64,000 bases of DNA from Candidatus Aenigmatarchaeota archaeon (GTDB lineage Archaea > Aenigmatarchaeota > Aenigmatarchaeia > GW2011-AR5), in NCBI GenBank assembly GCA_016187335.1, contig JACPJW010000001.1, forward strand, positions 671,159 to 735,158, read 5' to 3'. Below the pieces are notes generated by a model. That model saw only the letters and a program-made list of their open reading frames with translations. It was not told where the DNA came from and did not search any database. Position numbers and translations under genes: made by a program. Positions 341 through 27,941 of this stretch are shown here, piece after piece (position 1 is the stretch's first letter; each line of letters opens with the position of its first letter).

Positions 341-1060
341 TCAGAAAAGCTGGAAGCCTGCAATGGCCAGGACAGCAAGCAGAGACGGTATATGAATCAT
401 GTATATTGCCAGCGAGTTTCTTCCGAGGAAAGCAACAAAGGAAAGGAAGGGGTTTTTTGTCTCGCTTACCCTGAAATTCCTTTTCCCGTTTTTGTATAAT
501 GCCCCGCTGAAAGTTATGCCAATCAGAAAGAACCCGAACCACGGCAGCATCGGGAAATAATCAAGCGTTGCGAAGTTATGCGGCTGCAGCCCGAGCCACA
601 GCAGCCACGGGGAATCAAAGGAAAAGCTGCTTAGGTAAATGCCCGCAGCAATGAAGGCAAGACCCAAAAGGATGTTCCATTTTCCAAACCGAAGGAAGAA
701 GGGGGATATGACAACAGAAATTCCTATCAGATGCAGGATTCCGAACCAGACAGTCTGGCCCGGGACAAAAATCCATGTAACAAGGGTTATCGCCATTCCG
801 AGCAGGAAAATTTTCATGCCCCGCATCTCACCTCTATGATGAAAATTTTTCTTCTTTCTGCCATAGCTCACCGCCAGAGATATTCCAGCTATGGTTATGA
901 ACAATGTGCCGACGAAGCGCGGGAACCAGAACCAGAATATTTCTCCGGCAGAAAAATTATAAACGCCGAAATAGCGCAGCGCGAAGGCATAGTTGAATAT
1001 TATCATCAGGATTACGGCAAGGCCCCGAGCAAAATCAAGCTCCCGGAAGCGTTTTGGCAT
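341..1060 (-). CDS. DUF1624 / HGSNAT-like membrane acyltransferase family protein
   Basis: N-terminus MPKRFRELDFARGLAVILMIIFNY followed by multiple TM helices, typical of this family. Confidence 0.55.
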   Translation of the reverse strand: MPKRFRELDFARGLAVILMIIFNYAFALRYFGVYNFSAGEIFWFWFPRFVGTLFITIAGISLAVSYGRKKKNFHHRGEMRGMKIFLLGMAITLVTWIFVPGQTVWFGILHLIGISVVISPFFLRFGKWNILLGLAFIAAGIYLSSFSFDSPWLLWLGLQPHNFATLDYFPMLPWFGFFLIGITFSGALYKNGKRNFRVSETKNPFLSFVAFLGRNSLAIYMIHIPSLLAVLAIAGFQLF

Positions 1061-9453: not shown

Positions 9454-10140
9454 ATGGAAGAAAAAGAAGAAAAACACCAATGCAGTGAATGCGGAAAGGA
9501 GTTCAGCGCGGCGGAAGGTCTGGCGCAGCACATGCGCGACAAGCATTCGGCAATGACCAGCCATGAACTCAAGGAACAGCGCAAAAAAGAGAGGGAAGAT
9601 CAGCTGAAAAAAGAAAAGGATAAGTCGGAGCGCTCAAAGCTGACTAGAAAGATCCTGATTGTCGGCGGTGCTTTTCTTTTACTGTCAGGGCTGATTTACG
9701 CTTTTCTTGTCCTTAGCAAAGGCGGCGGCGAATCGCGCCTTGCCGACGAGGAATATATCCTGCGTACCAATCTGAGGACGCACAGCGGCGTAAGCATGCA
9801 CATACATCCCCATTTGATAATAATCGCAAACAACGAAAACGTGAATATACCGGCTGAGATAGGCATTGAAGGCGGCATAATGAGAGTTATACATACCCAT
9901 GACGCAACAGGAACAATTCATCTGGAATCGCCGGTTCCTAAGGACTTCACTTTAGGCCAATTCTTCTTCGTGTGGTCGCGAACCAGCGGCGAGCCGAAAG
10001 TATTCAATTCGTCTTGCATCCTCAGCTATTGCAATAACGGAACGAAGGCGGTGAAGATGTTCGTGAACGGCAAAGAAAGCGACGAATACGAGAATTACAT
10101 CATGCACGATCTGGACAGGATAGAGATAAGATACGAATAA
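9454..10140 (+). CDS. C2H2 zinc finger / TM helix / extracytoplasmic His-rich domain protein
   Basis: HQCSECGKEFSAAEGLAQHMRDKH fits C-x2-C-x12-H-x4-H. Lys/Glu-rich linker, TM helix (ILIVGGAFLLLSGLIYAFLVL), then HIHPHL...IHTHDATGTIH...MFVNGK...HDLDRIEIRY, paralogous to 6575..7327. Confidence 0.55.
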   Translation: MEEKEEKHQCSECGKEFSAAEGLAQHMRDKHSAMTSHELKEQRKKEREDQLKKEKDKSERSKLTRKILIVGGAFLLLSGLIYAFLVLSKGGGESRLADEEYILRTNLRTHSGVSMHIHPHLIIIANNENVNIPAEIGIEGGIMRVIHTHDATGTIHLESPVPKDFTLGQFFFVWSRTSGEPKVFNSSCILSYCNNGTKAVKMFVNGKESDEYENYIMHDLDRIEIRYE

Positions 10141-10178
10141 GCTTATAAATCTTAAAGCGATAAACAAAGTGATTTCAA

Positions 10179-10646
10179 ATGGGAGCAGACTTTGACAGAA
10201 TTGCTGTGCAACATCCTTGCCCAAGATGCAATAACGCGATGCCTGAGTATCAAACCGGTCAATTGGGCGGTAAGATGCGTGTATATAGACTGGGAGAAAG
10301 AATTTACGCTGTTAACCAATCAGATTTTCGCAGATTAGAAGATATACCTGATTTTGAATTTCATCTTTATGATGTATGTGGTTTATGTTTAATAACGATA
10401 GAAGGAGACGGTATTGTAAGAGGTAATAAATTATGGAGTATCATAGAGAAAGGATACAGGGATGAACGTGCATCGCCGATAATCGACTACGATCATCCTA
10501 TGGAAGTACCCGAACGTTACACAATAGAAACAGTTCTTATAGGAGAAAAACCGGCTAAAGTAAGAGTTCCCGTGGGTAAAAAAATTGTTTATCCACAGGA
10601 ACAGCCGTTTATTCCTAACGAAAGAGTTATCGCGACTCTTGAATGA
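10179..10646 (+). CDS. Hypothetical protein with CPRC...CGLC (possible zinc ribbon)
   Basis: ORF only; no family recognised. Confidence 0.3.
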   Translation: MGADFDRIAVQHPCPRCNNAMPEYQTGQLGGKMRVYRLGERIYAVNQSDFRRLEDIPDFEFHLYDVCGLCLITIEGDGIVRGNKLWSIIEKGYRDERASPIIDYDHPMEVPERYTIETVLIGEKPAKVRVPVGKKIVYPQEQPFIPNERVIATLE

Positions 10647-10670
10647 ACTTTTTCTTTACCCTTTTATACT

Positions 10671-11192
10671 TTGTTTTCCATTTTATTATCCATGCGTGGA
10701 TTGTATAAAGAGCAGCGCGTTGGCATTTTTGTCGATGTCCAGAACCTCTACTATTCTGCAAAGAACCTTTACCGTGCGAAGATAAACTATAACGGCATTT
10801 TGAAAGAAGCGATGAACGGCCGCACACTGATACGTGCGCTGGCTTACGTGATAAGGGCTGCCATTGAGGAGGAGAAAACCTTTTTCGATGCGCTGGAAAA
10901 GATAGGCTTTGAATTAAAGGCAAAGGATTTGCAGATATTCTACGGCGGAATGAAGAAAGGCGACTGGGACGTCGGCATAGCGATGGATGCCATAGAGCTT
11001 GCGCCAAAGCTTGACGTTATAGTCCTTGTTTCCGGCGACGGCGATTATTTGCCGCTTCTGGAGCACCTGAAGCGCTCGTCGGGCTGCAAGGTCGAGGTCA
11101 TGGCTTTCGGCCGCTCGGCAAGCAGCAAGCTCAAAGAGGCTGCAGACGAGTTCGTGGACCTGGACGCCGCGCCTGCGAAATATCTGAGATAG
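10671..11192 (+). CDS. NYN/LabA-like (DUF88) PIN-fold protein
   Basis: VGIFVDVQNLYYSAK...IVLVSGDGDYLPLLEHLK is typical of the LabA/NYN family. Confidence 0.65.
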   Translation: MFSILLSMRGLYKEQRVGIFVDVQNLYYSAKNLYRAKINYNGILKEAMNGRTLIRALAYVIRAAIEEEKTFFDALEKIGFELKAKDLQIFYGGMKKGDWDVGIAMDAIELAPKLDVIVLVSGDGDYLPLLEHLKRSSGCKVEVMAFGRSASSKLKEAADEFVDLDAAPAKYLR

Positions 11193-11349
11193 GAAAATCT
11201 AAAAGCAAGGGATTTTTCCTAGTTTGCATTAGATTAGTTTATGCGTTATAAAATATGCCTGAAGCAAAAAGGAAATTTCTGAAAACATTAAAAAAGCTTA
11301 AATTGCTTCTCTTCTTAATTAGAATTGCAAATTATTCTTTGGTGCAATT

Positions 11350-12363
11350 ATGCCAGAACACATTCACGCAGCCAGCAAAACAAAATGGGACGTTGTAATC
11401 ATCGGCGCAGGCTCTGCAGGTCTCACTGCAGCGGTTTATACCTGCAGGAAAAAGCTGTCCACGCTGATTTTAAGCGTTGACGTAGGCGGTCAGACAATCC
11501 TGACAAACCATATTGAGAATTATCCAGGCTTTTTCAAAGAGACACCCGGCTATCCGTCCGGGCCAAAACTTATGCAGATTTTTGAGGAGCAGGCAAAGCA
11601 TTTCGGCGCAGAGATAATAATGGGCAAGGTGACGAAGGTAGAGGTTGTGAATGAAAGCCCCACGCCGGAAAATCCTTACAAGTTTGTTCTGGAATTAAGC
11701 AACGGCGAGCGGTACGAAGCAAGGGTTGTTTTGCTGGCATACGGCAAGGTTCCCCGCGAGCTTGGCATCCCCGGCGAGAAAAAGTTCATAGGCCGCGGCG
11801 TCAGCACGTGCGCAACATGCGACGCTCCCTTATTTAGAAACAAAAACGTTGCTGTTATAGGCGGCGGCAACTCAGCTGTTGAGGCCGCTGAGCTTTTGAC
11901 AAAGTTCGCCAGCAAGGTTTACCTCGTCCATCGGAGGGACCAGTTCCGCGCTGACGAAATAACCATGGACAAGGTAAAGGCGTCGCCGAAAGTAGAACTT
12001 GTTTTAAACAGCATGCCTGCAGAAATCAAAGGCGACAAGTTTGTAAGCGGTCTGGTTGTCCAGAATGTCAATACTCAGGAAACAAGAGAACTTCCTGTTC
12101 ACGGTGTTTTCGTCGAGATCGGCTATATCGTGGTGACGGATTTTGTCAAAGATTATGTCGAGGTGAACAAGGCCAATGAAATTGTCGTTAATGAAAACTG
12201 CGAGACGAGGACGCCCGGTTTGTTCTCGGCAGGTGATTTAACAAACATACCGTTCAAGCAGACCATAACTTCCGCAGGCCAGGGCGCGATAGCCGGCTTG
12301 TCCGCCTACAACTACCTGATGCGCCTGCAGGGCAAGGCAGGCATTAAGGCTGATTGGGCTTGA
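11350..12363 (+). CDS. trxB: Thioredoxin-disulfide reductase
   Basis: FAD motif DVVIIGAGSAGLTAAVY, redox-active CATCDA, NAD(P)H motif VAVIGGGNSAVEEA-like. Confidence 0.85.
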   Translation: MPEHIHAASKTKWDVVIIGAGSAGLTAAVYTCRKKLSTLILSVDVGGQTILTNHIENYPGFFKETPGYPSGPKLMQIFEEQAKHFGAEIIMGKVTKVEVVNESPTPENPYKFVLELSNGERYEARVVLLAYGKVPRELGIPGEKKFIGRGVSTCATCDAPLFRNKNVAVIGGGNSAVEAAELLTKFASKVYLVHRRDQFRADEITMDKVKASPKVELVLNSMPAEIKGDKFVSGLVVQNVNTQETRELPVHGVFVEIGYIVVTDFVKDYVEVNKANEIVVNENCETRTPGLFSAGDLTNIPFKQTITSAGQGAIAGLSAYNYLMRLQGKAGIKADWA

Positions 12364-12390
12364 TTTAAAACTTGAAAACTATTTTTATCC

Positions 12391-12759
12391 ATGAAACTGG
12401 CACTGGAATTCCGTAAAAGAATTCCTTTTCTGAGGCTTATTCCAGATAAAGTATATTTTGACTTGAACTTTGACGAATTCTTTCTCCCGGATGATGAAAT
12501 CAATGAACTTCGGAAAAGCCTTGAATCAATGCTGAATCATTATGTCATGACTTACAAGACAAATGGATTTGACGATAAAATGCCCAAAGAAAAACACCTG
12601 TGCTTCAACCTGGAAATAGCAGAATTGAATGTCAGGCAGATGAAAATTTTAAGCGATTTTGAAAGTATTGCTAAAAGAAAAGGCGTCAGTTTTTGCGTCT
12701 ATCGAAAGCCGCTTAAACTGGTCCCACAAATTGACTTAAAAGCTTTCCCGCGTTATTAA
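12391..12759 (+). CDS. Hypothetical protein
   Basis: ORF only. Confidence 0.3.
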   Translation: MKLALEFRKRIPFLRLIPDKVYFDLNFDEFFLPDDEINELRKSLESMLNHYVMTYKTNGFDDKMPKEKHLCFNLEIAELNVRQMKILSDFESIAKRKGVSFCVYRKPLKLVPQIDLKAFPRY

Positions 12760-12788
12760 AGAAATATTATCAAAAGGATGGTGATATT

Positions 12789-13391
12789 ATGGCACATGTA
12801 TTGAAAGAACTTCCTTGGGACCCGAAGAAAGTCACGTGCGTTTCGCAGCAGGTCGTGCAGTGGCACCACGGCACGCATCACGCTGGTTACGTAAAAAAGC
12901 GCAATGAAATTGAGGAAAAGATAGATAAATTCGACAAAGCCGCTGCCAATGCAAATTATTCTGATTGGGGCGAGCTGAAGCGCAGAGAAACCTTTAACGC
13001 TTCCGGCATTATACTGCACGAGATATACTGGGAAAACATGGGCGGCGACGGCAAACACGACATGGACGCTGAAATTGTGAAGGCAATCATTCATTCTTTC
13101 GGTTCTTTCGAGAAGTGGAAAGAGGATTTCGTTGCCACGGCAAAAGCAAGCTTAGGCTGGGCAATATTGTGCTGGGACCCGTCTGACGGCAAGCTGCACA
13201 ACTTCCTGGTTGATTTCCACAACAACGGCGCTGTGTGGGGTTCCGTGCCGTTAATAGCCATAGACGTTTTTGAGCACGCATACTACCATGATTACGGGCC
13301 GGACAGGGCGAAATACATAGAAGCTTTCCTGAACAATCTGGACTGGGCAGCAATCAACGACAGGTTCAGGAAGAACGTGCCGAAACATTGA
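12789..13391 (+). CDS. sod: Fe/Mn superoxide dismutase
   Basis: HHGTHHAGYV and DVFEHAYYHDY metal-ligand motifs. Confidence 0.9.
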   Translation: MAHVLKELPWDPKKVTCVSQQVVQWHHGTHHAGYVKKRNEIEEKIDKFDKAAANANYSDWGELKRRETFNASGIILHEIYWENMGGDGKHDMDAEIVKAIIHSFGSFEKWKEDFVATAKASLGWAILCWDPSDGKLHNFLVDFHNNGAVWGSVPLIAIDVFEHAYYHDYGPDRAKYIEAFLNNLDWAAINDRFRKNVPKH

Positions 13392-24659: not shown

Positions 24660-25451
24660 TTGTCAAATTCATATCCTGCTTTTTCATTAGCGTTCAAGCT
24701 TAAAAAAGATAAGAAAAGAATTTATTTCGTGGCAAGCGTTTACAGGGTAGAGGCAGAAATAGATAAAAATATCAAGACAAAGGAAGACATGATAAAATTT
24801 TTTAAGAAAATACTTCAATTAAAGGAATTTGTTGAAGAATCTAATTTTGAATGTTTCGAAGATGATGATACCATTTCTGTTGATGGTAGTATAGTATTAA
24901 GTAAGAACAAATTCGGCTCTCTATATAAATCGGCTTCTGAGATTAAATGGGGTCATAATGCTGAATTTTATCAAGATTCGGCAAAAAAATACAGAATGAA
25001 TTTTTCTGTAACTAAATGGAAAGAGTGGGGAGTAATCAGAATAGTTTTGGAGGATATATCGTCTGAATTTTATCACAAACACTCGTTCAGAACAGTATTC
25101 TTTGGGAAAATGATTATCGGATGGTACTCGAACAGAGAGAAAAGATTTTTATTTAAAATTCCATATTATTATTTAGTTCTTAATTTACCGCAGCCGAGTT
25201 TTTTGAAAAATACGAAAGAAATAAGATTGCCTTTCATATCGATAAATTTTGATATTTTTGACAGAATAAACAAATATGTAGAAGAAAATAATAGAGTATT
25301 CGTAGAGTTTATTAAAAAATTTGTAGAACTCTACAATGTGGATACATGTGTAGGAAAAGACTACAGCACCGTATCTATGGAGGGTGCTATAATTTTTGAT
25401 TACTCCAAAAAGAACGGGTTCGTAGTTCACGATCATACGCTACTATTTTAA
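24660..25451 (+). CDS. AT-rich orphan protein
   Basis: Long ORF in a markedly AT-rich segment; no family recognised. Confidence 0.35.
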   Translation: MSNSYPAFSLAFKLKKDKKRIYFVASVYRVEAEIDKNIKTKEDMIKFFKKILQLKEFVEESNFECFEDDDTISVDGSIVLSKNKFGSLYKSASEIKWGHNAEFYQDSAKKYRMNFSVTKWKEWGVIRIVLEDISSEFYHKHSFRTVFFGKMIIGWYSNREKRFLFKIPYYYLVLNLPQPSFLKNTKEIRLPFISINFDIFDRINKYVEENNRVFVEFIKKFVELYNVDTCVGKDYSTVSMEGAIIFDYSKKNGFVVHDHTLLF

Positions 25452-25501: not shown

Positions 25502-26017
25502 TCAAACGGAAACTTCCCCGATTTCCCAGGGGAATACTATCCAGTCTTCAGCTTCTAACGCATAGTAGTCCGGAACGAATGCTGAATGCGGCTTCATCAG
25601 CAGTGACGCGGTTTTTATGCTCCATTCGCCGTGGCCGAGCAGGTCCGGCAGGGCTTTCAGCACTTCCCTGAACGTCGTTCCCGTGTCTGCGATGTCATCG
25701 ACAAGGAGAATGTTGAGGTCCGTGTGCCTCGGGACAAAGCCCGACAGCACCTTCTCCACGAGGCATTCCTTCCTTTTGTTGCCGTTTTTCTCGTAATAGT
25801 GTGCAGAAATAACGCCCATCACCTTCACGCCGAGCATTTCCTTAAGCAGCTTTCCCGGCACGAGCCCGCCGCTCGCTATGGAAATTACAACGTCGGGCCT
25901 GAAATCCTTCTTTATCGTTCTCGCCAGGTTCTCGGACATTTCGTGGACTTCATTCCATGAAACCATCCGCTCTCCAATCTTAGACGGCGCAACTGCCCTG
26001 AGGATTTCTTCATTCAT
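25502..26017 (-). CDS. Purine phosphoribosyltransferase (type I PRTase)
   Basis: PRPP-binding motif ILLVDDIADTGTT. Confidence 0.7.
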   Translation of the reverse strand: MNEEILRAVAPSKIGERMVSWNEVHEMSENLARTIKKDFRPDVVISIASGGLVPGKLLKEMLGVKVMGVISAHYYEKNGNKRKECLVEKVLSGFVPRHTDLNILLVDDIADTGTTFREVLKALPDLLGHGEWSIKTASLLMKPHSAFVPDYYALEAEDWIVFPWEIGEVSV

Positions 26018-26330
26018 TTTTCACACCAGATTCTTATGCAGGCAGCAGAAAGTTTGTAATACTTCTTCATATATGCTCCCTTCTTTAAATATCTTATCAT
26101 ACTTTTTCATACGAAAAATTTTCAAGTAACAATGGAAAGGTAGTTACACTAAAACCAAAAAACAGCGGCATACTTTACTTTCACCGAACTTTAATCTTTA
26201 ATAATTGTCTGTACTAATAATTCTTGAGTGAATATTATGAAAAAAGGCGGAAATAGAAAGATTCCCAGACCAAAGCCGTTTGGCGGCATGAATCCGACAG
26301 AATTCTTTAGGAAAATAAGGGATGAAAAGT

Positions 26331-27320
26331 CTAGGAAGCGAACGTGGTAAATGCTTCCTTGCTGTCTATTATTCTGGGCATCTTGAAATTATTCTCATGA
26401 TTAATATTTTCTAATATTTTTTTTGTTTCTGAATTATTCATAGTTCTTCTGTTATTAGTAACAATATAATCAAGCCGATTTACGACAGCAGCTGCAATTA
26501 TTTCGCAGTCTTCAATAGTGATTTTTATTTTTGCATTTATACATGCCTTGAAATAAGATTCTGCAAGAATTTTGACATTTTGATTTATCTCCAAGGCATT
26601 GTTTATGGCAGAATTGTAAAGCTTCAAAGTTTCCATCCTTGTAGGTTTGTGGGGGTTCTTTTCAAGCTCTTTCTTAATTGTACCAAATCCTAAAATTAAC
26701 AGACGCCCATCATTTTTTTCATTTATAAGTTTTGATACCAAATCCCCGACAGATTTGTCTTCTACCGCCCATCCATAAATATTAGTATCAAAAAGAATTT
26801 TTGTTGGTATAATTTCAGAAAACCACAGTTTTATTTCCGTTTCGGCTTCCTCTTTGTTGCCCGATGCGTGTATCAGATTGTACACAGGCCTTCTTTCCTT
26901 GTTCGCCTGCAGGATGTTGTCATTGCCTAAATCGCCGCGTATCGTGCCCTTTTCAGCTGCCGAAGGATCCGTGTAGCCCGTGATTTCCCTTGCCTTCTTT
27001 ATTGCGTTCTCGCCTTCCAGAATCATGGCAACAACGGGCCCTGAAGTCATGTATTTGCGCATGCCCGTTACGATAAACATGCCGTAGCCGTGGGGGTCCT
27101 TGCTTGCGAAAGGATCCCCGGCTTTCTTTCCTTTTTCAGCCAGCGAGAGCAGGTATTCTTCTTTTTCCGGGTAATGTTTTTTTATCAGCGATTCAGAAAC
27201 GCCCAGCATCTTCATTGCGGCAATGCGCAGCCCGCCTTTTTCATACCTGCTGATTATTTCGCCTATAAGATTCCTTTCAACGCCGTCCGGCTTTATCACG
27301 ATGAGGGTTTGCTCTTTCAT
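26331..27320 (-). CDS. ndk: Nucleoside diphosphate kinase fused to a C-terminal PIN domain
   Basis: N-terminal half has TLIVIKPDGV...NLIHASG (NDK). C-terminal half has ILFDTNIY...EDCEIIAAAVV...YIVTNN (PIN acidic residues). The C-terminal half is visibly more AT-rich. Confidence 0.7.
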   Translation of the reverse strand: MKEQTLIVIKPDGVERNLIGEIISRYEKGGLRIAAMKMLGVSESLIKKHYPEKEEYLLSLAEKGKKAGDPFASKDPHGYGMFIVTGMRKYMTSGPVVAMILEGENAIKKAREITGYTDPSAAEKGTIRGDLGNDNILQANKERRPVYNLIHASGNKEEAETEIKLWFSEIIPTKILFDTNIYGWAVEDKSVGDLVSKLINEKNDGRLLILGFGTIKKELEKNPHKPTRMETLKLYNSAINNALEINQNVKILAESYFKACINAKIKITIEDCEIIAAAVVNRLDYIVTNNRRTMNNSETKKILENINHENNFKMPRIIDSKEAFTTFAS

Positions 27321-27333
27321 GATTAAAAACTCC

Positions 27334-27723
27334 TTACCATTTTTCTGTTTTTAGTTCTTTAATTTTTGAAAAATGCTTTGTGTTTCTCGTCACAAGGCTG
27401 CAGCCGTTTGATATTGCTATGGATGCTATGAAAATATCCCTCAAATCAAGCTGGGTGCCTTTTTGGGAAAGTTCCTTATGGATGTCACTAGCCTTTTCGG
27501 ATGCTTTTTCATCAAACGGAAGCATTAACAATTTTGCCAGTATCTTTCTGGATTCTTCCAGATTCGCCTCTTTTTTTGATTTTTTTGCCCCGAAGAGTAT
27601 TTCATACGCATTAATCGAGGTTGTAAATGCCTTGCCTTCTTCATCAATTGATTTGGATTTTTCCAAGGCTTGTTCGTTCCCTCTTAAAATTGCCACGAGA
27701 AAATCAGAGTCAAGGCATTTCAT
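27334..27723 (-). CDS. vapC: PIN-domain toxin VapC
   Basis: CLDSDFLV...DIFIASIAISNGCSLVTRNTKHF. Overlaps the upstream antitoxin by 4 nt. Confidence 0.75.
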   Translation of the reverse strand: MKCLDSDFLVAILRGNEQALEKSKSIDEEGKAFTTSINAYEILFGAKKSKKEANLEESRKILAKLLMLPFDEKASEKASDIHKELSQKGTQLDLRDIFIASIAISNGCSLVTRNTKHFSKIKELKTEKW

Positions 27724-27941
27724 TTTTTACCAAACCCTTTCCATGCCCTTTTCAGTTCCTTGTCTATTTTTTTCCATTCGCTTTCAGTCATATCCCACTT
27801 GCCGAAAGAATCGGCTAACCTCCCCCTTCTGGCGGTAAGTTTCAGAATGGTCTTGCTGAAGCTCTCTCCCTTTCTCTTCTCCCTTGCCAAGGCCTCGTAA
27901 GCCTCGTCAAGAATTGTTATTGTCTTGGTCCCCATATCCAT
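27720..27941 (-). CDS. vapB: VapB-like antitoxin
   Basis: 73 aa; TKTITILDEAYEALAREKRKGESFSKTILKL. The 4-nt overlap with vapC is the typical type II TA arrangement. Confidence 0.6.
   Translation of the reverse strand: MDMGTKTITILDEAYEALAREKRKGESFSKTILKLTARRGRLADSFGKWDMTESEWKKIDKELKRAWKGFGKK

Follow-up and report, generated by a model that had tools for sequence, protein, structure and literature searches.

The locus and its genes

Within the window, by which we mean the whole 64,000-nt stretch of archaeal DNA that was analysed, a single gene on the minus strand (26331..27320) encodes a protein of 329 amino acids plus stop in which a nucleoside diphosphate kinase (Ndk) continues in frame into a PIN-like domain, as seen in the ORF list, the sequence, full-length homologues and independent contigs. 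The Ndk domain spans residues 1–167 (26820..27320, minus strand) according to Pfam PF00334 and a residue check. It is followed by the linker SEIIP, residues 168–172 (26805..26819, minus strand), which was delimited by protein alignment and by DNA alignment against the locus of the closest unfused relatives (L004), and which stands where the ancestral ndk had its final ~7 codons and stop codon. The remainder, residues 173–329 (26334..26804, minus strand), is the VapC-like PIN domain, defined by an AF2 model, Foldseek, column counts and a profile search; a search of the 64,000-nt window for further copies of this domain found none. On the plus strand, a small partner gene of 37 aa from its ATG (26237..26350) converges on the fused gene, and by the ORF coordinates the two genes overlap in antisense over 20 nt at the 3′ ends of their coding regions (26331..26350). 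A search of Rfam over 25900–27500 found no known RNA, and a search for RNA sequencing runs containing the region returned none.

The surroundings hold other insertions. A canonical vapBC pair (27334..27941, minus strand), separate from the fused module, lies directly upstream of ndk and comprises vapC (27334–27723, minus strand; PIN, 4.6e-19) and vapB (27720–27941, minus strand; VAPB_antitox, 1.9e-14). Such a pair had been noticed immediately upstream in a sequence-only reading of this DNA, and its Pfam and NCBIfam matches establish it as real. The pair is placed between rps10 and ndk, with only 13 nt separating it from the ndk start, a spacing that makes co-transcription probable; its vapC and the fused module thus present two PIN nucleases in tandem. 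The locus of the unfused relatives lacks vapBC, with no gene between a DUF4430-like gene and ndk. In the window, a PRTase gene adjoins the fused gene, and between the PRTase and aIF5B genes lies an AT-rich orphan ORF of 263 aa (24660–25451, plus strand; GC 0.30, GC3 0.30) with no match in Pfam or PADLOC. At that spot the unfused relatives have only a 62-aa minus-strand ORF, and the absence of the 263-aa ORF there makes it a third insertion within this 4-kb run of housekeeping genes.

Because two genes can be fused spuriously by a chimeric contig, a missed stop or a frameshift, the reality of the fusion deserves attention, all the more as the GC step within the gene is sharp and falls exactly at the domain boundary, which could in itself suggest an artefact. 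That explanation is effectively refuted. The 329-codon ORF contains no internal stops, and Logan contigs from four groundwater-metagenome runs belonging to two studies cover positions 26100–27500 with 0 differences; single contigs span this whole interval in two of the runs (X2, X3), and a 282-nt contig of the second study crosses the Ndk/PIN junction. The flanks of the window are syntenic with a relative on both sides, and seven other independently assembled kinase fusions have linkers of similar length. The in-frame fusion proposed in the sequence-only reading is therefore genuine: one ORF, contigs identical across the junction in runs of both studies, and the same fusion in other archaea. 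At the junction, an internal ATG, GTG or TTG start was looked for and none was found.

An intact housekeeping kinase

By synteny, the fused gene is the housekeeping ndk of this archaeon. Its N-terminal half matches the Pfam NDK family PF00334 with E 4.3e-40 (137.2 bits against a cut-off of 27) and retains every catalytic residue, including the catalytic histidine H151 within NLIHASG; the nucleotide-binding set K10, Y50, R111, T117, R128, N148, S153 and E162 is complete. The earlier description of this half as a normal Ndk is borne out accordingly. The equivalog model NF001908 of NCBIfam scores 140.7 bits, under its curated cut-off of 155, with the match split in two; the low score and the likewise split Pfam match are due to an insertion of ~30 aa at about residues 52–85 (window about 27066–27167), which follows the HY motif and reads EKEEYLLSLAEKGKKAGDPFASKDPHGYG. 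The NLIHASG active-site motif is also unusual. Both the insertion and the motif are common to the closest unfused relatives, and Patescibacteria/CPR are the source of many other matches that have such an Ndk. These closest relatives, P0007 and P0008, are unfused proteins of 191 aa that are 80–82% identical to the Ndk of the window, P0007 being the closest at 82%.

A VapC-like PIN domain outside the curated families

The C-terminal half had been assigned to the PIN domains from short motifs, and all those quoted (ILFDTNIY, IEDCEIIAAAVV and YIVTNN) are indeed present in it. The HMM search that had been proposed as a check gave no comparable assurance, as no curated PIN model reaches its threshold: the only Pfam match is PIN_3, below threshold at E 0.055 and 14.7 bits against a cut-off of 27, and neither this half nor its family matches any model in NCBIfam or PADLOC. 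A phmmer search of the PDB with the C half returned nothing significant, and a profile built from 116 family sequences found nothing significant among PDB sequences either, VapC11 appearing only at E 0.92. Homology to PIN domains thus rests on fold and motifs. Comparison of folds was the one approach that identified the domain. An AF2 model computed from the 116-sequence alignment, which supersedes an earlier one from seven sequences (pLDDT 78.5), reaches a pLDDT of 96.8 and a pTM of 0.90 and displays the Rossmann-like α/β/α sandwich with parallel strands that characterizes PIN proteins. When the model was compared with the PDB by Foldseek, the top 40 matches were all VapC or other PIN-domain proteins, with a probability of 1.00, the best being VapC11 (6a7v_G; E 9e-6, target-normalised TM 0.72, rmsd 3.2 Å). 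Judged by this model, the C half folds like VapC and other PIN domains, as the motifs had suggested; it additionally carries a C-terminal α-β-α extension of ~35 aa.

Column counts over the alignment locate the putative catalytic residues at D178 (26787–26789), E218 (26667–26669) and D271 (26508–26510) and the fourth-site residue at N290 (26451–26453), all on the minus strand. Of the 116 aligned family members, all have D178 and E218 and 115 have D271. The expectation of four PIN acidic residues therefore holds for three of them and fails at the last: in the T-x-D motif that supplies the fourth carboxylate, here T288-N289-N290, Asn occupies the acidic position in all eight kinase-fused proteins, as compared with Asp in 90 of 108 free-standing relatives. 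This uniform Asn may mean that the fused proteins have lost some or all of their activity. The eight fused proteins also share two invariant, clade-specific glutamates, E270 and E273, that flank D271. The VapC encoded directly upstream in the window likewise has N at its fourth acidic position.

The family to which the domain belongs is large. A word-indexed search for free-standing homologues recovered one fragment only. Searching exhaustively with a profile of the seven fused C domains yielded 272 representative clusters (defined at 50% identity) at E ≤ 1e-3, nearly all of them free-standing proteins of 160–175 aa. PIN proteins across the family are only ~25% identical, the fused C domains being 43–60% identical. 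Matches of family members to the curated libraries are weak and scattered among PIN models, and only the distant P0260 reaches PF01850 (8.8e-8). Free-standing copies adjoin genes for ParE and HicA toxins, RadC, an nSTAND/SLFN-type helicase and a PD-(D/E)XK protein, neighbors that fit a toxin–antitoxin (TA) or defence role. A scan of viral contigs found no copy of the module. At one free-standing locus (L022, 464–1222) the PIN-like ORF extends ~85 codons beyond the usual end, with the micro-ORF at its normal position (914–1027, minus strand); probably the assembly has shifted the frame or lost the stop codon here.

A convergent micro-protein gene at the 3′ end

The sequence-only reading credited the PIN half with no cognate antitoxin gene of its own. 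This proved wrong, for a small ORF on the opposite strand, convergent with the PIN gene and overlapping its 3′ end, is conserved and co-inherited at 19 of 19 distinct loci (8/8 fused and 11/11 free-standing loci examined). It is kept at every one of them in spite of the low identity of the PIN proteins (~25% across the family), and it is absent beside the unfused ndk of the closest relative. In the window, its product is MKKGGNRKIPRPKPFGGMNPTEFFRKIRDEKSRKRTW, with a pI of 11.7, and an alternative GTG start at 26228 would lengthen it to 40 aa. The ORF overlaps the PIN 3′ end at 18 of the 19 loci, the exception being L015 with a 4-nt gap. The overlap measures 20–23 nt in the seven fused loci measured (all but L019) and 14–44 nt at free-standing loci where measured, and the partner gene has 36–49 codons at the fused loci.

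The partner products are strongly basic (pI 10–11.7) and share the motif [DN]P-T-x-[FY]-F-R-x-[ILM]-R, which is looser in a distant clade. Among the free-standing loci, the motif occurs at seven (L006-8, L009, L021, L022, L023, L024 and L026); L025 has a similar one with R at the [ILM] position, and the three loci of the distant clade have [DN]PxF[IV]R (L012-14, L016) or DKEFIR (L015). Over the 17 non-overlapping core codons of the eight fused loci, differences by codon position number 54:33:247, with 210 synonymous and 72 non-synonymous changes, and this third-position bias identifies the partner as a protein-coding gene under purifying selection. No match to it was found in Pfam, NCBIfam or PADLOC, and no DNA-binding domain is recognisable in it by Pfam or NCBIfam. 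The partner is a candidate neutralising or regulatory gene with a presumptive antitoxin role; being convergent and basic, unlike classical VapB, it could instead act as a nucleic-acid-binding cofactor. The micro-protein gene is uncalled in L016, L019, L024 and L025, where only our own ORF scans found it, and the stored gene calls of L006 and L007 likewise lack it. Annotation pipelines may thus miss the partner.

Relatives and origin of the fusion

A search for the same fusion in relatives, another check that had been proposed, found the C-terminal domain on a nucleotide kinase in seven other protein clusters, six of them on Ndk and one on Adk. The six Ndk-fused homologues (P0002-P0006 and P0009; 303–338 aa) align over their full length with the protein of the window, and each has a linker of 5–6 residues after the C-terminal LWF motif of Ndk. 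The Adk-PIN fusion (P0031, locus L010) has 380 aa. Among the fused relatives, L011 comes from a Candidatus Aenigmatarchaeota MAG. In the contig of another, P0003 (L001), the module is followed by two tandem genes of the Pup-ligase family (PF03136; 7112–9765, minus strand, and 9869–12921, plus strand), and the aIF5B gene of that contig contains an intein with a LAGLIDADG endonuclease. Fusions of Adk with Ndk, proteins of 392–412 aa, are common among the relatives (P0020, P0026, P0027, P0034, P0035, P0039 and P0040), and at one locus (L027, 5001–6185) such a gene lies amid genes for MazG, an HD/YfbR-like nucleotidase and dNK/thymidylate kinase. A positional origin of the Adk-PIN fusion, which would presume that Adk-Ndk normally lies beside S10, is not supported; the sole Adk-Ndk locus fetched lies elsewhere.

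Composition, synteny and phylogeny speak to how the fusion arose. As the sequence-only reading had remarked, the PIN half is visibly more AT-rich than the ndk half (GC 0.319 vs 0.486; GC3 0.30 vs 0.57), and each of the eight fusions shows a drop in GC3 from the kinase half to the PIN half, the paired values for the first and the PIN half being 0.57/0.30, 0.31/0.245, 0.50/0.36, 0.70/0.51, 0.40/0.27, 0.72/0.41, 0.57/0.24 and 0.62/0.18. The locus of the unfused P0007 and P0008 (L004) has the same EF1a-S10-ndk-PRTase-aIF5B backbone without the cassette, and its DNA similarity to the window stops right after the LWF codons. In the tree of Ndk domains, the window groups with P0007 and P0008 (SH-aLRT 99) within a clade of unfused Ndks, the other six fused Ndks fall elsewhere, and a single clade of fused Ndk halves is rejected (AU test, p = 9.5e-5). 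In the tree of PIN domains, the eight fused domains form one clade (SH-aLRT 96), the Adk fusion included.

Taken as sequence comparisons, these two trees show that kinases acquired the PIN domain independently. One PIN clade, split Ndk halves and the GC3 step point to repeated lateral transfer or recombination of a cassette made of PIN domain and micro-ORF. Inheritance of one ancient fusion by vertical descent does not fit the incongruent trees and the composition pattern. The suggestion of recent capture thus gains from composition, from synteny with an unfused relative and from the incongruence of the domain trees, which together fit a recent gain of the fusion in the window lineage with the domain laterally acquired. 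The flanks of the cassette were searched for target-site duplications, inverted repeats and insertion scars, and none were found.

A probable regulated nuclease on a kinase

We consider it probable, if only by a little, that the fused gene represents a TA-like, regulated RNase module that was recently joined to a housekeeping ndk and that moves between kinase genes. The last few codons of ndk would have been replaced recently by a laterally acquired cassette comprising a VapC-like PIN domain, set in frame with Ndk, and the convergent 37-codon gene with its 20-nt 3′ overlap. As a two-gene module, this cassette is free-standing in many uncultured genomes, with one subclade attached to Ndk (in two unrelated clades) and to Adk. 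The PIN domain would be an Mg2+/Mn2+-dependent endoribonuclease using D178, E218 and D271, in which the clade-specific E270 and E273 may partly offset the missing fourth carboxylate. The small basic protein would bind the PIN domain and neutralise or gate the nuclease in the manner of an antitoxin, and the 3′ antisense overlap may contribute cross-regulation at the RNA level. Through fusion, the housekeeping ndk promoter would come to drive the nuclease, which would be tethered to an oligomeric, NTP-binding enzyme. We infer the nuclease activity, the binding of the small protein and any link to nucleotide status, and the coupling of NTP status to RNA cleavage raised in the sequence-only reading is speculative.

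The uniform loss of the fourth aspartate in the fused proteins raises the question of whether the domain cuts RNA at all. It may instead be a domesticated or attenuated PIN that serves RNA or nucleotide binding, localisation or oligomerisation, with the small protein as a structural or RNA-binding cofactor. The retention of the fusion across diverged lineages and the very basic character of the partner, which resembles a nucleic-acid binder, would suit such a role. The three remaining catalytic carboxylates are nevertheless present in all eight fused proteins, together with the two added invariant glutamates, a pattern unexpected for a dead site. Natural active VapCs that lack Asp at the fourth position are known, and the VapC of the window itself has N there. 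We therefore regard domestication as unlikely. A further reading takes the PIN-like gene and the micro-protein gene as an unrecognised TA or defence module, widespread in ultra-small archaea and probably in bacteria too, of which one lineage specifically parasitises nucleotide kinases or was co-opted by them, hops between ndk and adk and has its RNA cleavage gated by the kinase; such gating would operate via the NTP/NDP state, the oligomeric state or phospho-histidine. As a whole, this reading strikes us as decidedly unlikely.

The kinases themselves invite a metabolic alternative in which the PIN domain breaks RNA down and the Adk or Ndk joined to it phosphorylates the products again, an economy that would suit small-genome DPANN archaea dependent on salvage. 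That one PIN subclade sits on two structurally unrelated but sequential kinases, that Adk-Ndk fusions occur in related organisms, with the L027 example amid nucleotide-metabolism genes, and that a PRTase gene lies beside the fused gene would all agree with it. VapC-like PINs, however, cut site-specifically as endonucleases and release no mononucleotides; the free-standing relatives lie amid TA and defence genes, not metabolic ones; and the obligatory partner gene and the persistently foreign composition favour a selfish or defence module. Salvage coupling is accordingly very unlikely in our judgement. Should the nuclease of the TA-like module be active, an essential enzyme in a genome of ~0.9 Mb would bear an RNase that is potentially toxic and is restrained by a micro-protein, and the system would offer a tractable model of the way selfish modules are integrated into core metabolism. 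If RNA cleavage were in addition gated by the kinase, nucleotide pools would be coupled to RNA turnover directly, through an enzyme.

Comparison with known systems

The family is VapC-like, lies outside the curated libraries searched and is recurrently fused to kinases; no description of its convergent micro-protein partner was found. It is large (~270 clusters at 50% identity) and yet has no Pfam, NCBIfam or PADLOC model, and standard TA finders, which seek upstream co-directional antitoxins, would miss a convergent, 3′-overlapping partner. Literature searches for Ndk-PIN, Adk-PIN or kinase-PIN fusions returned nothing relevant, and the PIN-superfamily classification (PMC5499597) never mentions a kinase; the occurrence of one subclade on both Ndk and Adk in DPANN archaea is absent from that classification and from the literature searched.

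The closest likeness in fold is to VapC of the type II VapBC systems (PF01850), such as M. tuberculosis VapC11 (6a7v) and Shigella VapC (5ecw), with TM up to 0.72 and an rmsd of 3.2 Å. The D/E/D catalytic positions are equal and the fourth Asp is present in the wider family, which resembles VapC as well in the shortness of its proteins, in the close linkage of a small partner gene and in neighborhoods rich in TA and defence genes. The tight linkage and co-inheritance of a small partner expected of VapBC are seen at 19/19 distinct loci. The PIN-like domain differs from VapC in having no above-threshold sequence model and in its ~35-aa C-terminal extension, and the domain of the window differs further in its covalent fusion to Ndk and in the Asn at the fourth acidic site. 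The gene arrangement departs from VapBC as well: VapB is encoded upstream, is co-directional, usually overlaps the toxin gene and has an N-terminal DNA-binding domain, whereas the partner here is convergent, overlaps at the 3′ end, has ~37 aa and is basic, and the upstream position is taken by ndk.

In layout, the module recalls the type I TA systems txpA/ratA and bsrG/SR4 of Bacillus subtilis, whose genes are convergent and overlap at their 3′ ends. The short antisense 3′ overlap could permit RNA–RNA regulation in either case, but those systems pair a hydrophobic toxin peptide with a non-coding RNA, whereas here there are two conserved proteins, the larger of them a predicted nuclease. The Adk-Ndk fusions (P0020, P0026, P0027 and others) involve the same type of Ndk and illustrate how readily kinases fuse in frame in these organisms, but both of their halves are metabolic enzymes and they have neither a nuclease nor a small partner gene.

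Among known fusions of a PIN nuclease with an NTP-binding enzyme, PhoH2 comes nearest; in it, a PIN domain is joined to the PhoH RNA helicase/ATPase (PMC5499597, citing Andrews & Arcus 2015). No PhoH match was found by Pfam in the fused protein of the window, and the PIN-like domain has no sequence relationship to PhoH2 beyond the PIN superfamily. The PIN domain is N-terminal in PhoH2 and C-terminal here, and its partner there is a P-loop helicase rather than a nucleotide kinase (Ndk or Adk). PhoH2 is known from bacteria and phages, with its small gene upstream and co-directional, whereas the present fusions are archaeal and their partner gene is convergent. What the two have in common is the architecture, namely a VapC-type PIN domain carried by an NTP-binding enzyme and accompanied by a small adjacent gene, proposed in each case as an antitoxin.
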